From Zestosphaera tikiterensis (GTDB taxonomy: Archaea > Thermoproteota > Thermoprotei_A > Sulfolobales > NBVN01): a stretch of 32,000 nucleotides of DNA. A program made the position numbers and the translations under genes. Shown here one piece after another: positions 23,478 to 32,000 of this stretch. The stretch spans positions 270,001 through 302,000 of the forward strand of contig NBVN01000004.1 in the NCBI GenBank assembly GCA_003056265.1, given 5' to 3'. The first letter of the stretch is position 1; each line of letters opens with the position of its first letter. A model generated the notes under the pieces. It ran no database searches. It was not told where the DNA came from and saw only the letters and a program-made list of their open reading frames with translations.

Positions 23478-23554
23478 ATTCTTTAAAACCCTAAATAACT
23501 GCGATTTAAAACTTTATAAAACCTCAAACAATAATTATTACTTGAGGTGTGTAT

Positions 23555-26443
23555 ATGAACAGAATGAAAAACCTTGTAACCTTTATAGCTCTAGCTTTAA
23601 TCCTCGCCTCCATAGTAGTGGGTTACGGGAGCATAACGGTTGCGGCGCAACAGAAGAAAGGCGGTGCTTCAGACTCTATAACGTATGTAGCGATAGCGTT
23701 AGATAAAGTCGTTGAGGAGTTTAAGGCTGGCAGGATAGACGCATACATATACGCCGTTAGACCAACTCAAGTAGATCCACTGAAGGAATTACCTAACGTT
23801 AAATTCGTTACAGCGCCCGCCGGCATGGTTGACATAATATTAAACCCAGTACCCGTTAGGACTATAGAGCTTGACGGAGATCAAAGAGGCAAGTACCTAC
23901 CTGCGTTAGTTGGTTATCCGGAAAACGTAATTACTCAAGTATGGTATGACCCTGAGAAGAATAAAACATACGTTGACATCGCCGCAGACGGTCAGAGAAT
24001 TAACCCACTCGCTTTAAAGGGTGTTAGGCTAGCGATAAACTACTTAGTCGATAGGGACTTCATAGTTAAAAACATATACAGAGGTTTCGCAGCACCTATG
24101 TATACCTTCCTCTCCTCATACGATCCGGACTACGCCATAGTGGCTGACATCCTAGCTCAATACGGATTTAAATACGACCCAGACTATGCTAAGCAAATAA
24201 TAACTCAGGAGATGACTAAAGCCGGCGCCGTGTTAGTAGGTGGTAAATGGTATTACGGCGGTAAACCCGTGGAGATCACATTCATCATTAGGATTGAAGA
24301 TGAGAGGAAAGACATAGGTGATTTAATAGCTACGGAGCTTGAGAGAGTAGGATTTACAGTAAATAGGATGTACTTACCGTTTGCTGAAGCTTTAGGGAAG
24401 GTTTACGATTCAGACCCGGCAGACCTACTATGGCATATCTACACAGAGGGCTGGGGTAAGAGCGCGCTCGAGAAATACGATTATGGAGCGATAAACCAGT
24501 ATTGTGCCCCATGGTTTGGTGACATGCCTGGATGGCAAACTGAGGGATGGTGGTGGTATAGAAATGACGTAATAGATGACGCAGGTCAGAAGATATACTT
24601 CGGTAAGTTCAAGTCTGAAGCTGAGAGAAATGAACTCTACAGAACGGTGACTAAGCTCTGCATCGACGACTCCGTAAGGATTTGGATAGCTACTAGAATG
24701 GACATATATCCAGTCAGCGCCAGCCTTCAAGGCATAACTCAAGACTTAGGTGCTGGGATGAGATCGCCGTTCAACCTTAAAGGTGTTTACGTACCTGGGA
24801 AACCCGACATAGTCTTCGGTCATGTATGGGTTTACACAGCTAGGACCATATGGAACGTATACGGCGGCTTCTCAGACGTTTACAGCGTGGATATCGAGAG
24901 AGCAACTTACGACCCAATGACGTGGAGGGATCCGTTCAACGGTCTACCTATAGCCGTTAGGACGTCGTACGAAGTAGTTACTGCCGGGCCAGACGGAACC
25001 TTAGACGTTCCTTCAGACGCTATAATATGGGACGCTACTCAAGGTAAGTGGGTGAACGTAGGGCCCGGGACTAAAGCTATATCCGTAGTTAAATTCGACA
25101 TGAGTAAATTCGTAGGCACTAAATGGCATCACGGCATAACCATTACTTGGGCTGACATCCTAGCTACGTGGGCTACGTGGTTTGACTTAGTGTATAACGG
25201 CACTAAAGCCTCATGGGATACGTACGTCTCAACACCGAATAAAGCATTCTTCGACACGATCAAGGGCTTAAGGATAGACACAACTAAGAACGTGCTTGAA
25301 GTTTACGTGGATTACTGGCACTTTAGCGATGCTTATATAGCTGACTACGCAACTTTAACACCCATCAACCCTGCTGAGTTACTACTGATTGAAAACCACT
25401 TAGTCTATGACTTAAACAAATACACGTTCTCACCAACGGCGGCAACAGCTAGGAAAGTACCGGCGCTTAACCCAGTGCCGTTTACAGACCACGCTAACGA
25501 TATTAAATCCGTGGCTGACGCGTGGAGAACCGCTGGATACTTACCAAGTAGGTACTTCACGTTACCGGATGGTAGGAACTTAATGCCTGCGGCTGAATGG
25601 ACTTCAAGGCTTCAAGCTCTGTCTACGTGGATTAACGATCATAAACACGCGTGGATATCTCAAGGACCTTATTACTTAGACACGTTCGATAAAGACAACC
25701 AGAAGGCTGTGATTAAAGCTTTTAGGGACCCGACCTACCCGTTCACAGCTGATTACTGGGTTAAAGGAGCTGTAGTAGCGCCTAAGATGGTTGTTGCTGA
25801 AACGCCTAGGTTAATAGTCGGTAACGCTACCTCAATACCTATAACTGTATCGGGTAAAGGGCCCTTCACGGTTTACTTCCTCGTTAAAGAGATAGCTACC
25901 AACACAATAGTGCTTACTGGTAAGGGAACTCAAGTAGCTGAGAATAAATTCGTCGTTGAAATACCTCCTGAGAAGACATCGCTATTCAAGCCTTACTACG
26001 CCTACGAAATACAGATAATAGCGACTAGCGAGAGCGTTGCCGTACCAGACGTCACATCAATAAAGATAGAGGCGTTGCCAGCGTCCACAGTTCAATACCA
26101 GCAGTACATTGAGAAGCAGTTAGAGGAGCAGAGGGCATACCTTGAGCAGCAGTTAGGCGCTATAGGCCAGACGTTAGGTGCTGCGTTACAGGAGACCTCA
26201 TCCAACATAATGAAGTACATAGACTCTAAAGTCGATCCGTTAAGTAAGGCAGTTTCAGACACTAAGAGTAGGGTGGACGCCATATCAGGTACTTTAAGTG
26301 CTTTACAAGCAGACATCAGCGATATGAAGACCAGTACTGAAGGAAGCTTAGGCAACATATCCACATACGTAACTGCTGTGTTAGCGCTTTCAATAATTAA
26401 CTTAATAGTAGCTATAGCTCTACCATTCCTAAAGAGGAAATAG
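23555..26443 (+). CDS. extracellular solute-binding protein, family 5 (peptide/oligosaccharide type), with C-terminal coiled-coil and TM anchor
   Basis: Signal-like N-terminus MNRMKNLVTFIALALILASIVVG (ATG 23555; the ORF track starts at GTG 23549). Family-5 block GVRLAINYLVDRDFIVKNIYRGFAAPMY. The last ~120 aa are heptad-like (QQYIEKQLEEQRAYLEQQL...) and end in a TM helix, TAVLALSIINLIVAIALPFL. Confidence 0.85.
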   Translation: MNRMKNLVTFIALALILASIVVGYGSITVAAQQKKGGASDSITYVAIALDKVVEEFKAGRIDAYIYAVRPTQVDPLKELPNVKFVTAPAGMVDIILNPVPVRTIELDGDQRGKYLPALVGYPENVITQVWYDPEKNKTYVDIAADGQRINPLALKGVRLAINYLVDRDFIVKNIYRGFAAPMYTFLSSYDPDYAIVADILAQYGFKYDPDYAKQIITQEMTKAGAVLVGGKWYYGGKPVEITFIIRIEDERKDIGDLIATELERVGFTVNRMYLPFAEALGKVYDSDPADLLWHIYTEGWGKSALEKYDYGAINQYCAPWFGDMPGWQTEGWWWYRNDVIDDAGQKIYFGKFKSEAERNELYRTVTKLCIDDSVRIWIATRMDIYPVSASLQGITQDLGAGMRSPFNLKGVYVPGKPDIVFGHVWVYTARTIWNVYGGFSDVYSVDIERATYDPMTWRDPFNGLPIAVRTSYEVVTAGPDGTLDVPSDAIIWDATQGKWVNVGPGTKAISVVKFDMSKFVGTKWHHGITITWADILATWATWFDLVYNGTKASWDTYVSTPNKAFFDTIKGLRIDTTKNVLEVYVDYWHFSDAYIADYATLTPINPAELLLIENHLVYDLNKYTFSPTAATARKVPALNPVPFTDHANDIKSVADAWRTAGYLPSRYFTLPDGRNLMPAAEWTSRLQALSTWINDHKHAWISQGPYYLDTFDKDNQKAVIKAFRDPTYPFTADYWVKGAVVAPKMVVAETPRLIVGNATSIPITVSGKGPFTVYFLVKEIATNTIVLTGKGTQVAENKFVVEIPPEKTSLFKPYYAYEIQIIATSESVAVPDVTSIKIEALPASTVQYQQYIEKQLEEQRAYLEQQLGAIGQTLGAALQETSSNIMKYIDSKVDPLSKAVSDTKSRVDAISGTLSALQADISDMKTSTEGSLGNISTYVTAVLALSIINLIVAIALPFLKRK

Positions 26444-26516
26444 CCGGAAATTCCACCTCTTTTTAATAACAAATAAATTTTTTAACTTGAACTAAACTAA
26501 TTTTAGGGTACGTTTA

Positions 26517-27593
26517 ATGGGTGTAGGCACGACTCTAGCTAGAAGGGCTGTATTCCTAGCTGCGGCATTGGTTATAGCGGTGTTTTTAACTGGGGTGATA
26601 TTAGGTGCTTCCGGATATATAGATAAGGTTTTAAACGCGATAGTTTTGGAGGAGGTTAGAGCTTACAGGCAAGGCCTTTCAAAACTTTATAACTTAACTG
26701 CGGCTGAGAGGGATAGGTTGGTTGCTGAGTATGAGAAGACTTTAAGGGATTACTACCAACTCGATAAGCCGTGGATTTACAGGTTAGTGCCTACGGTTCT
26801 TTCAACTTTAACTCTAGACTTGGGTTACGTGCAGAGCGGTGGCGTTGCTGAAGTTGCTGGTTATCAACTACCGGTGAGGGTTAGTACGGTAGTGCTTACT
26901 TGCTTGCCTAGGACTATATTCATGATTACGGTGGCTGAGGCTATAACTATCGTTATAGCGTTGTTGGTGGCTCCCTTCATAGTGTATAGGATAGGCTCCT
27001 TAATAGATAGGGTTGTAGTTGCTTACGCAGCCGTAATGAACGCATTTCCGCTTTGGTGGATTGCTTTAGTTATGTTGTTTACTTTAGGGTATAGGTGGGG
27101 TATAGCACCCACTAGGTTGAGAGCCGTTACAGCATCTATAAACGCGTTGTTCTCAGGCAACTTACTTGCTTTAGGTGAGGTCTTCTACTATGCTTGGCTG
27201 CCGATACTAACTATAGTTGTAGTGTCGTTGGGTCCGTGGATCTACAGCGTTAGAGCTATGTTAATACGTGTCGTTAAGGAAGACTACGTTACCGCCGCGG
27301 TGGCTAGGGGTTTACCTGAGAAATACGTTTTAAGGAGGTATATAATGCGTCCGGCCGCTTCCCCCATCGTCACTAACGTGATTTTAGGTCTTGCCGGGAC
27401 TATAGGCGGTTATATAATCACGGAGTCCGTGTTTGATTGGCCCGGTATGGGAACGCTCTACTACTCAGCGATAGTTAATGCTGACGCACCAACGATACTT
27501 GCCCTCACCTACATATTCACGTTGGTTTACGTGGTGGCGAGGTTTATTTTAGAGGTGCTTTACATAGTTTTAGATCCGAGGGTGAGATTATGA
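26517..27593 (+). CDS. ABC transporter permease, DppB/OppB type
   Basis: 358 aa, multi-TM, with the C-terminal block ITESVFDWPGMGTLYYSAI typical of DppB/OppB. Overlaps the next gene by 4 nt. Confidence 0.9.
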   Translation: MGVGTTLARRAVFLAAALVIAVFLTGVILGASGYIDKVLNAIVLEEVRAYRQGLSKLYNLTAAERDRLVAEYEKTLRDYYQLDKPWIYRLVPTVLSTLTLDLGYVQSGGVAEVAGYQLPVRVSTVVLTCLPRTIFMITVAEAITIVIALLVAPFIVYRIGSLIDRVVVAYAAVMNAFPLWWIALVMLFTLGYRWGIAPTRLRAVTASINALFSGNLLALGEVFYYAWLPILTIVVVSLGPWIYSVRAMLIRVVKEDYVTAAVARGLPEKYVLRRYIMRPAASPIVTNVILGLAGTIGGYIITESVFDWPGMGTLYYSAIVNADAPTILALTYIFTLVYVVARFILEVLYIVLDPRVRL

Positions 27594-29086
27594 GCTTCAT
27601 CGCTAGGGTGTACGCAGGCTTAAGCTGGTTAAGGAGGGAGGTTTTAAGTCAATTCAGCGGTAAGGTAGCTATAGCTTTGCTAGTCGCTATAGTTGCTGTA
27701 TCCATATACGCAGCCGCTACGATGCCCTCCAACTACAACGTCATATGGAATTACCCGCTTTACTGGGAAGCAAACCCTAAGAACTCCCCGCCGGAGTGGT
27801 CTACATACTTCGGAACTACATGCTTAACCAATCAAGTATATGACTTAAGGACTGCGACACCTAGAATCTCCGTAGATGAGGAGGGTAGGGTTAGGTTAAC
27901 TTACAACATGACTTACACGCTCGACGTTAAATCTTACCCAAGGGCTTTAATACTGATCGTGGACTCTATGACTATACCGGCTAACGTAAGGAACGTTAGG
28001 GTATTAAACACTATAGTTAAGCCTGATGGGAAGCAAATTCAAGTATTCGATGACCTAGTGGACTTCACTAAAAACGTCACCGCAGGAAGCTTTAAATTCA
28101 CTCAAACGTTCAGGCCTGAGTTGGATAAGATATACAACTCATTACTGCTGAATTACATCAACTACAACATAGATCCAAACGACGTAGGCGTTAACTACTT
28201 AAGCTATATATTCGGTGAGATAACTCAACCAGACCCTAAGTCAACGGCTAGAACTACATACCTTACGGGCAGGTACGTAATAAGTTTAACGCTGGACTTC
28301 AGGGTTGAGGGGGTTGCGCAGGAACTACTTCTTAGAAGCATTAAAAACGCCGCTAGATTTGAATATGTTGTTGTAGGTACGTGCTACGGCCTTATGGGTA
28401 CGGACTATCAAGGCAGGGACTTAGCTATGGGTCTCCTCTACGGATTCCCGATAGCTTTACTTATAGGTTTAGGTACGGCTTTGATGTCGACGGGTTTAGG
28501 GCTTTTAGCCGGTATGGTTAGCGGTTACTACGGAGGTTTTATAGATGAGTTCATTCAGAGGTTTATAGACGTTTTAGGTTCTATACCTCTGCTTCCTATA
28601 CTTATTTTAGTTGCGGCAGCAGCTCAAACAGCTTTCGGTGCTGACCCCAACAAGCCAGTTCTTATGTTGTTAACGATCTTAGGCGTTTTAGTTTTGTTTG
28701 GTTGGGGTGGTTTAGCTATAGTTGTTAGGTCCATGACTTTAAGTATTAAGAGCGAGCTATATGTAGAGGCCGCTAAATCCATAGGTGCGAGCAACTTCAG
28801 AATATTGATTAAGCATATACTACCTCAGTTAGTTCCGTACATAGCTGCTTCACTAGTTTACTCAACTCCTAACGCTATATTAACGGAAGCGGGCTTGTCG
28901 GTGTTGGGGATATACCACGGACTCCCTACGTGGGGAGGTATACTTGCTGAAGCTAGGACTCAAGGAAGGGTTGAGTACTGGTGGTGGATCTTCCCGCCAG
29001 GCCTCTTAATAGCTATAACCTCATTAACGTTTGTTTTATTAGGGTTGGCGTTAGAAAAAGTTGTGGAGCCTAGGTTGAGGAGGTGA
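27590..29086 (+). CDS. ABC transporter permease, DppC/OppC type, with ~225-aa extracytoplasmic insert after TM1
   Basis: The GTDYQGRDLAMGLLYGFPIALLIGL block and the permease core occupy the last ~240 aa. TM1 (VAIALLVAIVAVSIYAAA) is followed by a long non-hydrophobic region that typical ~300-aa DppC proteins lack. Confidence 0.85.
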   Translation: MSFIARVYAGLSWLRREVLSQFSGKVAIALLVAIVAVSIYAAATMPSNYNVIWNYPLYWEANPKNSPPEWSTYFGTTCLTNQVYDLRTATPRISVDEEGRVRLTYNMTYTLDVKSYPRALILIVDSMTIPANVRNVRVLNTIVKPDGKQIQVFDDLVDFTKNVTAGSFKFTQTFRPELDKIYNSLLLNYINYNIDPNDVGVNYLSYIFGEITQPDPKSTARTTYLTGRYVISLTLDFRVEGVAQELLLRSIKNAARFEYVVVGTCYGLMGTDYQGRDLAMGLLYGFPIALLIGLGTALMSTGLGLLAGMVSGYYGGFIDEFIQRFIDVLGSIPLLPILILVAAAAQTAFGADPNKPVLMLLTILGVLVLFGWGGLAIVVRSMTLSIKSELYVEAAKSIGASNFRILIKHILPQLVPYIAASLVYSTPNAILTEAGLSVLGIYHGLPTWGGILAEARTQGRVEYWWWIFPPGLLIAITSLTFVLLGLALEKVVEPRLRR

Positions 29087-30150
29087 TTTTAATGAGTGAA
29101 CCTAAGTTAGTGGTTGAAGGTTTAAAGAAGTACTTCCCCATAAGAAGGGGTATCACTGAAGCATTAACTTTCAAACCTCCTAGATACGTTAAAGCTGTTG
29201 ACGGCATTAGCTTTGAGGTATTTGAGGGTGATGTTTTCTGCTTAGTTGGCGAGTCCGGATGCGGTAAAACAACTACTGGAAGACTTATAGTTAGGCTTAT
29301 TGAAGCTACTGATGGTAGGATGAGATATAAAGTTTCTGAAGAGCTTAAGAATCAAATACCTGAGGACCTCCTTCAAGACGGGAAATACGTTGACTTACTA
29401 GGTAAGCTACCTAAGAACGTTGATAAAGCTTTAAGGAAGGATACGCAGATAATATTTCAAGACCCCTACGGCTCTTTAAACCCGCGTATGACTTTAAAAG
29501 ACATACTTAACGAGCCGCTGCAAGTGCATAACATAGGAGCTTCAGAAAGTGAGAGGTTGGAGATAATACATAGAGCGTTAAGTGAGGTTAAGCTAACACC
29601 ACCTGAGGAGTTCGTGGATAGATATCCACACATGCTGTCGGGAGGTCAGAGGCAGAGGGTAGCTATAGCTAGGGCAATCATTTTAAACCCGTCCTTAGTA
29701 GTTGCTGACGAACCTGTAAGCATGCTTGACGTCTCAATAAGAGCTGAGATACTTCAGTTAATGCTAGATTTGAAAGCTGCTAGGAACCTCTCATACGTGT
29801 TCATAACCCACGACCTAGCGGTAGCGAACTACATATGCAATAGGATAGCGGTTATGTACTTAGGGAAGATAGTTGAGATGGGGATCACGGATAAGGTAAT
29901 AGGCAATCCTCAACACCCATACACGCAAGCGTTAGTAGCTGCGGTGCCGGAGCCAGACCCTAAAAACAGGCTTAGGATTAAGGAAGTACCTATAAAAGGC
30001 GAGATCCCAAGCGCTGCTAACATACCAAGCGGTTGTAGACTCCACCCAAGATGTCCATACGCGATGGATATATGCAGTAAGGAAGAACCGCCTATGGTGG
30101 AAGTTGAGAAAGACCACTACGTAAGTTGTTGGTTGCATACGAAGAAGTAA
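29083..30150 (+). CDS. ABC transporter ATP-binding protein, DppF/OppF type
   Basis: Walker A GESGCGKTT, signature LSGGQRQR, Walker B VVADEPVSMLD, and a C-terminal tail with PQHPYTQALV and GCRLHPRCPYAMDIC...HYVSCWLH. Confidence 0.9.
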   Translation: MILMSEPKLVVEGLKKYFPIRRGITEALTFKPPRYVKAVDGISFEVFEGDVFCLVGESGCGKTTTGRLIVRLIEATDGRMRYKVSEELKNQIPEDLLQDGKYVDLLGKLPKNVDKALRKDTQIIFQDPYGSLNPRMTLKDILNEPLQVHNIGASESERLEIIHRALSEVKLTPPEEFVDRYPHMLSGGQRQRVAIARAIILNPSLVVADEPVSMLDVSIRAEILQLMLDLKAARNLSYVFITHDLAVANYICNRIAVMYLGKIVEMGITDKVIGNPQHPYTQALVAAVPEPDPKNRLRIKEVPIKGEIPSAANIPSGCRLHPRCPYAMDICSKEEPPMVEVEKDHYVSCWLHTKK

Positions 30151-30302
30151 CTCTAAATCATATAGGAAGTTTTCTTCAGTAAGGTATGGAAAGCTCTTAA
30201 CCCTGAATCCCTAAATCCTCACATTATTCACGGATATAATCTTAACATCCTTAACTTAATCAACAATAAAAGCTTAACCTACTTTAATTTTTGGGTTTAA
30301 AA

Positions 30303-31367
30303 ATGAGTCGATGTTGCGTTAAGACGGGTGTCGTTGGTTGGGGTGCGTACATCCCCCTCTACCGGTTGAGGTCTAAGGAGATAGCTAGCTTGTGGGGTTT
30401 CGACCCAAACGTGGCTGACTCTATATGGATTGAGGAGAAGTCTGTAGCTTCAGTAGATGAAGACGCGATAACTATGGGGTGGTACGCAGCTAAATACGCT
30501 TTAGTTAGGGGTGGGGTTAACCCTGAAGACGTAGGTGCTGTTTTCGTAGGTACTGAATCCAAGCCGTATGCGGTTAAACCATCCTCAACAGTTATAGCGG
30601 ATGCTTTAGGGATTTCCAGGAAGAAATTAGCTACGGATTTAGAGTTTGCGTGTAGAGCTGCTGCTGAGGGGATTAGGTTAGCAGTAGCTTTAGTTTCAAG
30701 CGGTAGTATCAAATACGGTTTATCTATAGGTTCCGATACAGCTCAAGCAAGCCCTGGAGACGTGCTTGAGTTAACGGCTTCTTCAGGTGCTGTTGCGTTT
30801 TTAATAGGTCCTGCCGAGGAATCGGTTGCGGTGTTTGAGGGGTTAACGACGTACGTTACTGACACACCGGATTTCTGGAGGAGGGAGGGTTCTAAATACC
30901 CATCTCATGGCGAAGGATTTACAGGTGAGCCCGCGTACTTCCATCATATAATCTCTTCAGTGACTATGTTGCTGGAGGAGTTAGGTCTGAAGCCCTCGGA
31001 TTTCGACTACGCAATCTTTCACCAACCCAACGGTAAGTTCCCTCTTCAAGTGGGGAGGGCTTTAGGATTTCCTAAGGAGAAGATCACCCCAGGTTTAGTA
31101 ACGCCGTGGATTGGGAACACCTACAACGCTTCAGCTCTGTTAGGCTTAGCTAAAGTTTTAGAAATCGCTAAGCCGGGTCAGAGGATTTTAGTCGCTCCAT
31201 TCGGGTCTGGAGCCGGTAGCGATGCTATGAGCTTAGTAGTCACCGATAAAGTTTTAGATAGGGTTCATAAAGCACCTACTGTGGAGGAGTTAATTAATAG
31301 GAAGAAATACGTAAGTTATGCTGAATACGCTAAATCAAGAAACTTAATCTTACGGAATGTGGGGTGA
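30303..31367 (+). CDS. hydroxymethylglutaryl-CoA synthase (archaeal type)
   Basis: VGWGAYIPLYRL, EEKSVASVDEDAITMG, the catalytic-Cys block LEFACRAAAEG and the His block AIFHQPNGKFP. ATG 30303 is preferred over the TTG at 30291 given by the ORF track. Confidence 0.9.
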   Translation: MSRCCVKTGVVGWGAYIPLYRLRSKEIASLWGFDPNVADSIWIEEKSVASVDEDAITMGWYAAKYALVRGGVNPEDVGAVFVGTESKPYAVKPSSTVIADALGISRKKLATDLEFACRAAAEGIRLAVALVSSGSIKYGLSIGSDTAQASPGDVLELTASSGAVAFLIGPAEESVAVFEGLTTYVTDTPDFWRREGSKYPSHGEGFTGEPAYFHHIISSVTMLLEELGLKPSDFDYAIFHQPNGKFPLQVGRALGFPKEKITPGLVTPWIGNTYNASALLGLAKVLEIAKPGQRILVAPFGSGAGSDAMSLVVTDKVLDRVHKAPTVEELINRKKYVSYAEYAKSRNLILRNVG

Positions 31368-31371
31368 TGGA

Positions 31372-32000
31372 ATGTTGAAGGCTTACATAGCATCTGTTGA
31401 GATGCTTAAAATAGATAGACACTACGATAAAAGCTATGTAGACATGGCTTTAGAAGTTATTGACGCTGTGTTAAACGGTGTTGGCTTAACCCCCTCCGAA
31501 CTGGATTACATTATAGTATCTACAGCTTTCAACAGCTTATTAACACATCAGGTAGGGTCTTCCTACATCTTAGCTCAGTACTTAGGCGTTAAAAACGTTA
31601 ACGTAGCGTCTGTAGAGGCTGGTGAGGCTTCAGGCGCTGCCGCGTTAGATTACGCGGCAAGCCTGGTTAAGTCAGGCAAAGCAAGCAAAGTTTTAGTTGT
31701 TGGTTTTGAGAAGATGAGTGAATATCCCTCATGGATTGTAAATAGGGAATATTCGAAAATACTTAACTACATGGTTGAAGGTATTAAAGGTGTTACGCCA
31801 CCCGACTACGCCGCCATAATTATGAAGGAATATATGAGTAAATACAACGTTACGAGGGAAGACGTGTTTAAATGGAGTGTTAAAATGCATGAAAACGCTT
31901 CTAAAAACCCATACGCTCAACTGCCTTTCAAAATATCTAAAGACTCCTACGTAAAATCTTTAGTTATGTCAGACCCTATAACAATGCATGATTCGTTCCC
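31372..32000 (+). CDS. thiolase-like protein (5' part, runs off the window), partner of HMG-CoA synthase; lacks the canonical nucleophilic Cys
   Basis: Frame open from ATG 31372 to the window end (209 codons; absent from the ORF track because there is no stop). ...NVASVEAGEASGAAALDYAASLVKSGKASKVLVVGFEKMSE aligns with the thiolase block ..vEaaCaSG..A...A...I.sG..d.vlvvG.EkMse, but has Glu (GAG, 31624-31626) at the Cys position. Confidence 0.8.
   Translation, partial: MLKAYIASVEMLKIDRHYDKSYVDMALEVIDAVLNGVGLTPSELDYIIVSTAFNSLLTHQVGSSYILAQYLGVKNVNVASVEAGEASGAAALDYAASLVKSGKASKVLVVGFEKMSEYPSWIVNREYSKILNYMVEGIKGVTPPDYAAIIMKEYMSKYNVTREDVFKWSVKMHENASKNPYAQLPFKISKDSYVKSLVMSDPITMHDSF

Follow-up and report, generated by a model that had tools for sequence, protein, structure and literature searches.

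A conserved thiolase-like protein with glutamate at the nucleophile position beside HMG-CoA synthase in Zestosphaera tikiterensis, and a mirror-image operon in the same genome

The window, i.e. the whole stretch of 32,000 nucleotides analysed here (G000:C2:270001-302000), ends with the genes for HMG-CoA synthase (HMGS) and for a thiolase-like protein (hereafter referred to as THL_E). The window cuts the second gene, and the complete gene was read from the contig. The features at the locus, in window positions, are as follows.

30291 to 31367, forward strand: HMG-CoA synthase, 358 aa (P0004), with the stop codon TGA at 31365-31367; identified with NCBIfam.
31362 to 31366, forward strand: GGTGA, a Shine-Dalgarno-like site inside the HMGS end, 6 nt before the THL_E ATG; from reading of the sequence.
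31372 to 32000, forward strand: first 209 codons of THL_E; from Pfam, NCBIfam and an AlphaFold2 model.
31624 to 31626, forward strand: GAG codon of Glu85, which takes the place of the nucleophilic Cys; from alignments to P0002, 6esq and 7yvy.

THL_E starts with the ATG at 31372, separated from the HMGS stop codon by 4 nt (TGGA), with a second possible in-frame ATG at 31357; the complete protein (P0001; L001:1501-2637) has 379 aa and its gene ends 508 nt past the window. The GGTGA site suggests a putative translational coupling of THL_E to HMGS. A gene for a 140-aa DUF35 protein (DUF35_A) lies 3' of THL_E and overlaps its end, and the order of these three adjacent, co-oriented genes (operon A) is conserved in relatives. 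Directly upstream of HMGS, at 23549-30150, is a peptide/oligopeptide-type ABC transporter operon, judged from translations, which comprises a probable 964-aa binding protein, two permeases and a single ATPase gene (29083-30150) whose product ends in a four-Cys tail (C-x5-C-x6-C ... C). Past the window end, DUF35_A is followed by a PLP-dependent class I/II aminotransferase-like gene (L001:3109-3627), recognised from its N-terminal sequence.

The HMGS was matched by NF003274 (538 bits, cut-off 244) and TIGR00748 (464 bits), and its tetrad residues E89, C121, H244 and N276 do not vary among 24 orthologues. The first-pass annotation had noted that this enzyme keeps its catalytic Cys (LEFACRAAAEG), which is borne out by the invariant C121, and as judged from its residues the HMGS of operon A is catalytically intact. 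DUF35_A carries PF12172 and PF01796 (zinc ribbon and OB fold of the ChsH2/DUF35 type) with an invariant set of four zinc-ribbon cysteines (C26, C29, C40 and C43). Modelling of HMGS, DUF35_A and THL_E together, with alignments, gave a score of 0.89, but a control in which HMGS was replaced still reached 0.76, and the model counts neither for nor against the putative physical assembly of the three proteins.

A comparison of the complete THL_E with the Pfam thiolase domains, as proposed at first pass, identified both Thiolase_N (5e-18) and Thiolase_C_1 (1.5e-9) above their cut-offs; the scores with NF004720 (252 bits, cut-off 420) and NF053570 (181 bits, cut-off 600) are below theirs. In the AlphaFold2 model, built on 18 orthologues (pLDDT 91.5, pTM 0.93), residue 85 begins the helix 84-100 after the strand 77-81, i.e. 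at the classical nucleophile elbow. With the ATG at 31372 as the first codon, codon 85 is GAG and gives V-E-A-G-E-A-S-G, followed by ...KVLVVGFEKMSE; the earlier reading of Glu85 at 31624-31626, in a gene 4 nt after HMGS, agrees with the coordinates and the motif as reread. In BLASTP against the second thiolase of the genome (P0002), VEAGEASG lies opposite VEGACGSG. In phmmer searches of the PDB it falls in a gap-free block on VEAACASG of 6esq, placing Glu85 on Cys85, and opposite IEAACASG of 7yvy. The entry 6esq, the solved archaeal thiolase from Methanothermococcus thermolithotrophicus, was matched in its thiolase chain with an E-value of 4e-41 over residues 13-344.

Archaeal ACATs are characterised by the catalytic motifs CxS, HDxF and GHx; no HMG-CoA is formed by the archaeal enzyme with the H284A substitution, and a bacterial homologue with H294Y has almost no thiolysis left (PMC12960953). 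In THL_E, NVYDTYN lies opposite EVHDCF/EVHDAF, so that the His of HDxF corresponds to Tyr283 (YDTY). By the above definition, with ExS in place of CxS and YDTY in place of HDxF, two of the three catalytic motifs are lost in THL_E. Inspection of the C-terminal catalytic residues, suggested at first pass, showed that the His of the GHx motif is kept (G325-H326-P327 in GHPVGA, conserved in the clade), with the HDxF His and also the C-terminal NxGG loop (NVGGxG) gone, the latter reading SMSGPD. The only Cys of THL_E, residue 377, is unconserved. Among the 47 orthologues no Cys column reaches 15% and 16 proteins are free of Cys, and no profile alignment places the active-site Cys at another residue, a possibility that the first-pass annotation had named as refuting its view. 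With Cys85 replaced by Glu and the HDxF His by Tyr, THL_E is predicted to be unable to form the acetyl-enzyme; the loss of both residues, the relaxed active-site loops described below and the lack of any other suitable Cys argue that it is not a thiolase, and it probably lacks thiolase activity.

The motif G-E-x-S-G is invariant in all 47 orthologues, and an intact HMGS gene lies directly upstream of the Glu gene in all 46 for which the upstream flank was recovered. The best match is a Glu protein in each of the 24 genomes of the window's family and likewise in the neighbouring families, and in the same genomes the Glu gene sits between HMGS (64-78% identical) and DUF35 wherever the contig permits. 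Named genome records carry Glu in Acidilobus, Caldisphaera, Hestiella and Tiamatella, and Asp in Ignicoccus pacificus DSM 13166. About 90 metagenomic homologues with G-E-x-S-G, rarely with Q, D or G, were obtained from 5.8 billion proteins searched; they belong to the Desulfurococcaceae, Zestosphaera, Acidilobus/Caldisphaera and 'Sulfolobales' MAGs. The earlier argument that Glu is not a sequencing error is strengthened, since GAG differs from TGY at all three bases and the residue is shared by the whole clade (47/47).

Selection was examined with within-genus pairs having unsaturated dS, which gave dN/dS values of 0.09-0.14 for THL_E, 0.03-0.055 for HMGS and 0.04-0.10 for the Cys-thiolase; identity within the family is 40-58% for the Glu protein as against 62-87% for the Cys-thiolase. 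THL_E is thus a functional gene under purifying selection, neither an error nor a decaying copy. A comparison of 63 Cys-thiolases with the 47-member Glu clade covered the 69 positions at which the Cys-thiolases show a conservation of 90% or more. In the Glu clade, 30 of them remain conserved, among them K114, H173, D284 and the GGLKxRGHPxGAT loop, and 37 are relaxed, including G50-N51-M52, H283, Q342 and the N361/G363/G364 loop. The only positions that are both switched and fixed are Ala84 to Gly and Cys85 to Glu, each in 100% of the clade. H326 and N316 are invariant, and a conserved HSMSGPD loop is peculiar to the Glu clade. The His equivalent to that of HDxF is present in 87% of the clade; Tyr283 is confined to Zestosphaera and its sister genus, the remaining members having HDSY, some of them with T or F.

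The first-pass annotation had suggested a search of the genome for a canonical CxSG thiolase paralogue and for DUF35. In the assembly (93% complete), the thiolase fold is encoded only twice apart from HMGS, and DUF35 twice, each of the two thiolase genes preceding a DUF35 gene; exactly one of these thiolases, P0002 (383 aa; VEGACGSG), is a canonical thiolase. It is located 49 kb downstream of THL_E on the same contig, has the Cys, HDAY and GHP motifs and scores 439 bits with NF004720, over the cut-off of 420. It forms part of a second operon (operon B), in the order X254, Cys-thiolase P0002 and DUF35_B, the last being 36% identical to DUF35_A. X254 (P0003, 254 aa) has no match in Pfam or NCBIfam. 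A profile of 13 X254 homologues aligned with HMGS over 247 columns with a hhalign probability of 96% (E-value 2.6e-9), and in this alignment Cys121, His244 and Asn276 of HMGS have no counterparts. The AlphaFold model of X254 (pLDDT 83.7) matched FabH and HMGS structures at TM scores of about 0.70. On the profile and the model, X254 is a degenerate HMGS that lacks three residues of the catalytic tetrad, Cys, His and Asn.

Protein searches placed a homologue of X254 directly 5' of the Cys-thiolase in 16 of the 24 family genomes, profile searches added six, and the reciprocal operon pair is conserved across the family. In a genome of a neighbouring family (G026:C2; L147:352-1392), the slot 5' of the canonical thiolase holds a full-length HMGS paralogue of 347 aa, which shares 31% identity with HMGS and keeps the tetrad Glu, with Cys replaced by Thr, His by Thr and Asn by Cys. 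Judged by its residues, this dead paralogue seems to represent an intermediate on the way from a live HMGS to X254. X254, P0002 and the dead HMGS of the neighbouring family together point to a whole-operon duplication followed by reciprocal loss, in which the thiolase of operon A and the HMGS of operon B seem to have died, the latter being shortened afterwards, with HMGS still live in operon A and the thiolase in operon B. Two observations were made in less complete genomes. In an 83%-complete MAG (G016; L045:2287-3211), two overlapping frames together make up the canonical thiolase of operon B, owing either to a frameshift or to an assembly error. In an 87%-complete genome (G018; L146:533-1690), the second thiolase match is another paralogue (VENACASG, 42% identical to P0002), preceded by a 253-aa ORF that matches neither the X254 nor the HMGS profile, and its true operon B may be unassembled.

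A FastTree phylogeny of 84 thiolases was inferred with the nucleophile columns removed, its supports being SH-like only. The Glu proteins of the window's lineage and the Ignicoccus Asp protein fall on one side of a branch (36 rows, SH-like 99), and the Cys-thiolases of the same genomes on the opposite side. Over the tree, changes between Cys and non-Cys number at least six. Separate losses next to HMGS are found in Caldarchaeales-like lineages (E, D, G, A), Odin- and Jordarchaeia (E, D), Thorarchaeota (P) and one Thermoplasmatota MAG (D). An HMGS-adjacent thiolase with A-D-N-S-G (G035; L031:1423-2643) branches within the canonical Cys clade and apparently represents an independent, recent loss of Cys. 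Among the 50%-identity representatives of the wider family, the site is occupied by C in 62, D in 23, G in 16, E in 12, S in 12 and P in 7. Among the homologues from the large protein search, Gln is found only in the rare P0067 and P0078. The two Ignicoccus-type genomes, the Ignicoccus pacificus record and G032 (L134/L135 and L130/L131), contain HMGS, an Asp-variant thiolase (GDGSG) and DUF35, and one of the two Asp variants also has YDPF. Both Ignicoccus-type genomes encode elsewhere a classical bacterial-type thiolase (Thiolase_N E-values 2e-90 and 3e-86), unrelated to the Asp variant, and in neither was a mirror operon detected. Thiolase activity has been measured in Ignicoccus. That an Asp/Glu variant serves as the sole thiolase there was considered and rejected because of the classical thiolase in both genomes.

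The first-pass annotation had offered two readings of THL_E, either a paralogue that serves as a scaffold without catalysis or an enzyme of another chemistry; the motif losses, the lone canonical paralogue and the DUF35 genes support this pair of readings, with a leaning towards the scaffold. On balance, THL_E is probably a non-thiolytic structural and CoA-site partner needed by HMGS, with acetoacetyl-CoA supplied by the other complex. THL_E would then be a thiolase-fold subunit devoid of thiolase chemistry, selected as the obligatory partner of HMGS and equipped with its own DUF35, i.e. the dead half of an HMGS/ACAT/DUF35-type complex. Archaeal HMGS alone is reported to be inactive and ACAT alone insoluble (PMC12960953), and this behaviour, the purifying selection and the synteny with HMGS and DUF35 suggest that THL_E is kept as the partner of HMGS. 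Acetoacetyl-CoA would come from the only canonical thiolase of the genome, in operon B, and would reach HMGS through diffusion in solution, unlike the channelling in Methanothermococcus. Two parallel complexes, each carrying one pseudo-subunit, would then coexist, an arrangement favoured by the likeness of operon B to the ACAT/dead-HMGS-DUF35 complex of Pseudomonas fluorescens. Glu85 might stabilise the emptied active site as a helix-N-terminal residue, acidic residues being favoured where helix 84-100 begins, or, as an isostere of S-acetyl-cysteine, hold the subunit in an 'acetylated' conformation. The spectrum of D, E, S, G, P and N in other lineages, all helix-start residues, makes a non-catalytic role of Glu85 plausible.

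Some observations fit less well with a structural partner, the fixed Gly-Glu pair foremost. A pure scaffold is not expected to fix one residue, yet Gly84-Glu85 is found in 100% of a deep clade; acidic residues recur at the site in independent lineages; the GHP His and most of the GGLKARGHPxGATG loop are kept; and uncoupling the thiolase from HMGS forgoes the thermodynamic benefit of channelling. An alternative is an altered chemistry, in which the fixed carboxylate of Glu85 would be catalytic or would mimic an intermediate, a reading that we regard as unlikely and that comes in two versions. In the first, Glu85 would act as an S-acetyl-cysteine isostere, like the Gln of KSQ and chain-length-factor (CLF) ketosynthases, in malonyl-CoA decarboxylation or acetyl-CoA enolisation feeding HMGS. 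In favour of an altered chemistry in general, Gly84-Glu85 is the sole fixed switch between the clades, E or D occupies the site in 35 of about 140 family representatives (Gln in a few), and H326, N316 and the clade-specific HSMSGPD loop are conserved; however, many active-site loops are relaxed, and the G, S, P and A of other lineages fit a helix-N-terminal preference rather than one chemistry. In the second, Glu85 and Tyr283 would catalyse an aldol or retro-aldol reaction like that of the Ltp2 and Sal aldolases, as YDTY resembles the YDHF/YDCY of these thiolase-fold aldolases, in which the Tyr is the base (PMC12329534). Against this, Tyr283 occurs only in Zestosphaera and its sister genus, the second aldolase residue (Tyr344, or the third-position Cys, which is Thr here) is missing, and ACATs are much closer to THL_E (E-value 1e-41) than is Ltp2 (2e-8). 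In a more far-reaching proposal, which we consider improbable, Gly84-Glu85 would define a new class of thiolase-fold enzyme or regulator in which a carboxylate isosteric with S-acetyl-cysteine replaces the thiol, resulting in a Cys-independent C-C step that feeds HMGS or in a shared CoA site locked in the 'acetylated-thiolase' conformation required by HMGS. If so, a large part of the Thermoproteota would begin its isoprenoid lipids by an undescribed mechanism, as would, independently, some Asgard and other archaea.

The strictly reciprocal losses, in trans, and the co-conservation of operons A and B in the family could also be explained if the products of both operons co-assembled, so that the live thiolase faces the live HMGS, channelling is kept and the dead paralogues fill the remaining places. 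In the ancestral complex, each subunit is present several times within a dodecamer (PMC12960953), which would accommodate such mixing. Nevertheless, a mixed complex is rather improbable: each operon has its own DUF35 paralogue (36% identity) and translational coupling, which suggests two self-contained assemblies, and the Ignicoccus-like genomes pair the Asp variant with an unrelated classical thiolase in the absence of a mirror operon. Lastly, an artefact, a decaying pseudogene or a canonical thiolase with its Cys elsewhere, for which only the faster evolution of THL_E relative to its partners might speak, is barely conceivable, being ruled out by the intact frame in all genomes, dN/dS of about 0.1, the invariant Glu, the three-base difference between GAG and TGY and the lack of a conserved Cys.

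The thiolase/HMGS/DUF35 channelling complex is the textbook entry to archaeal membrane-lipid synthesis and the common assumption is that it overcomes the unfavourable equilibrium of the thiolase step. In the present hyperthermophilic clade, the thiolase adjacent to HMGS is, by its motifs, dead and conserved, and a dead HMGS accompanies the only live thiolase; the Glu clade takes in Desulfurococcaceae-like and Acidilobus/Caldisphaera lineages, with the Asp of Ignicoccus at the same site. Either channelling is dispensable in this clade, which would make it a clean natural case of reciprocal pseudo-enzymes after operon duplication, or the Glu protein carries an undescribed activity. The finding calls into question whether channelling is as general at the entry to lipid synthesis in archaea as has been assumed. 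Which of the two readings holds affects pathway annotation, because the Glu genes are routinely named acetyl-CoA acetyltransferase, and also bears on efforts to engineer mevalonate modules from archaea. The tripartite complex, dead HMGS-like partners (PhlA, MucA and the P. fluorescens HMGS domain) and Cys-less thiolase-fold aldolases are already published; a search of the literature outside subscription journals found no description of an ACAT without Cys, or with Glu in its place, in the HMGS operons of archaea, nor of a reciprocal operon pair.

Comparison with known systems helps to place the two operons. The thiolase/HMGS/DUF35 complex of Methanothermococcus, credited to Vogeli and co-workers in 2018, reportedly channels acetoacetyl-CoA. 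Operon A shares with it the same three gene families in one operon, the E-C-H-N tetrad of HMGS and a DUF35 with a four-Cys zinc ribbon and OB fold; it differs in the Glu for Cys85 and the Tyr for the HDxF His of its thiolase, and the present genome has a second, mirror-image operon. As an acetyl-enzyme would be impossible in THL_E, channelling of the Methanothermococcus type is not expected to start there.

In KSQ and chain-length-factor ketosynthases the nucleophilic Cys is replaced by a Gln that mimics acyl-Cys, and such proteins serve either as partner subunits or as weak malonyl decarboxylases. Likewise, the nucleophilic Cys is replaced in another member of the thiolase superfamily, the trypanosomal SCP2-thiolase-like protein (SLP; data cited in PMC12329534). 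THL_E is unlike KSQ/CLF and SLP in having Glu rather than Gln and in its CoA- rather than ACP-dependent context. Closer in form are the Ltp2-ChsH2(DUF35) and Sal-Shy(DUF35) aldolases (PDB 6ok1; PMC12329534), which have an SCP2-type thiolase fold without the nucleophilic Cys, a DUF35 partner and Tyr as the first residue of the HDxF-equivalent motif (YDHF and YDCY, as against YDTY here). Nevertheless, Sal has Gly rather than Glu at the nucleophile site, the DUF35 of these aldolases is fused to a hydratase, the similarity is weak (2e-8), the Tyr occurs in only two genera of the Glu clade, and the second acid (Tyr344 in Ltp2, the third-position Cys in Sal; PMC12329534) is absent in THL_E.

The PfACAT/HMGS-DUF35 (Pseudomonas fluorescens), PhlABC and MucABC systems are tripartite, with one dead thiolase-fold subunit as a structural partner (PMC12960953; PMC6392133), and the P. 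fluorescens ACAT/dead-HMGS-DUF35 complex performs thiolysis only (PMC12960953). Operon B, with its dead HMGS and live ACAT, is built like these systems. Operon A is unlike them, as their dead subunit (PhlA, MucA, the P. fluorescens HMGS domain) is HMGS-like and that of operon A is ACAT-like; moreover, both polarities are present here in one genome and within primary lipid metabolism.
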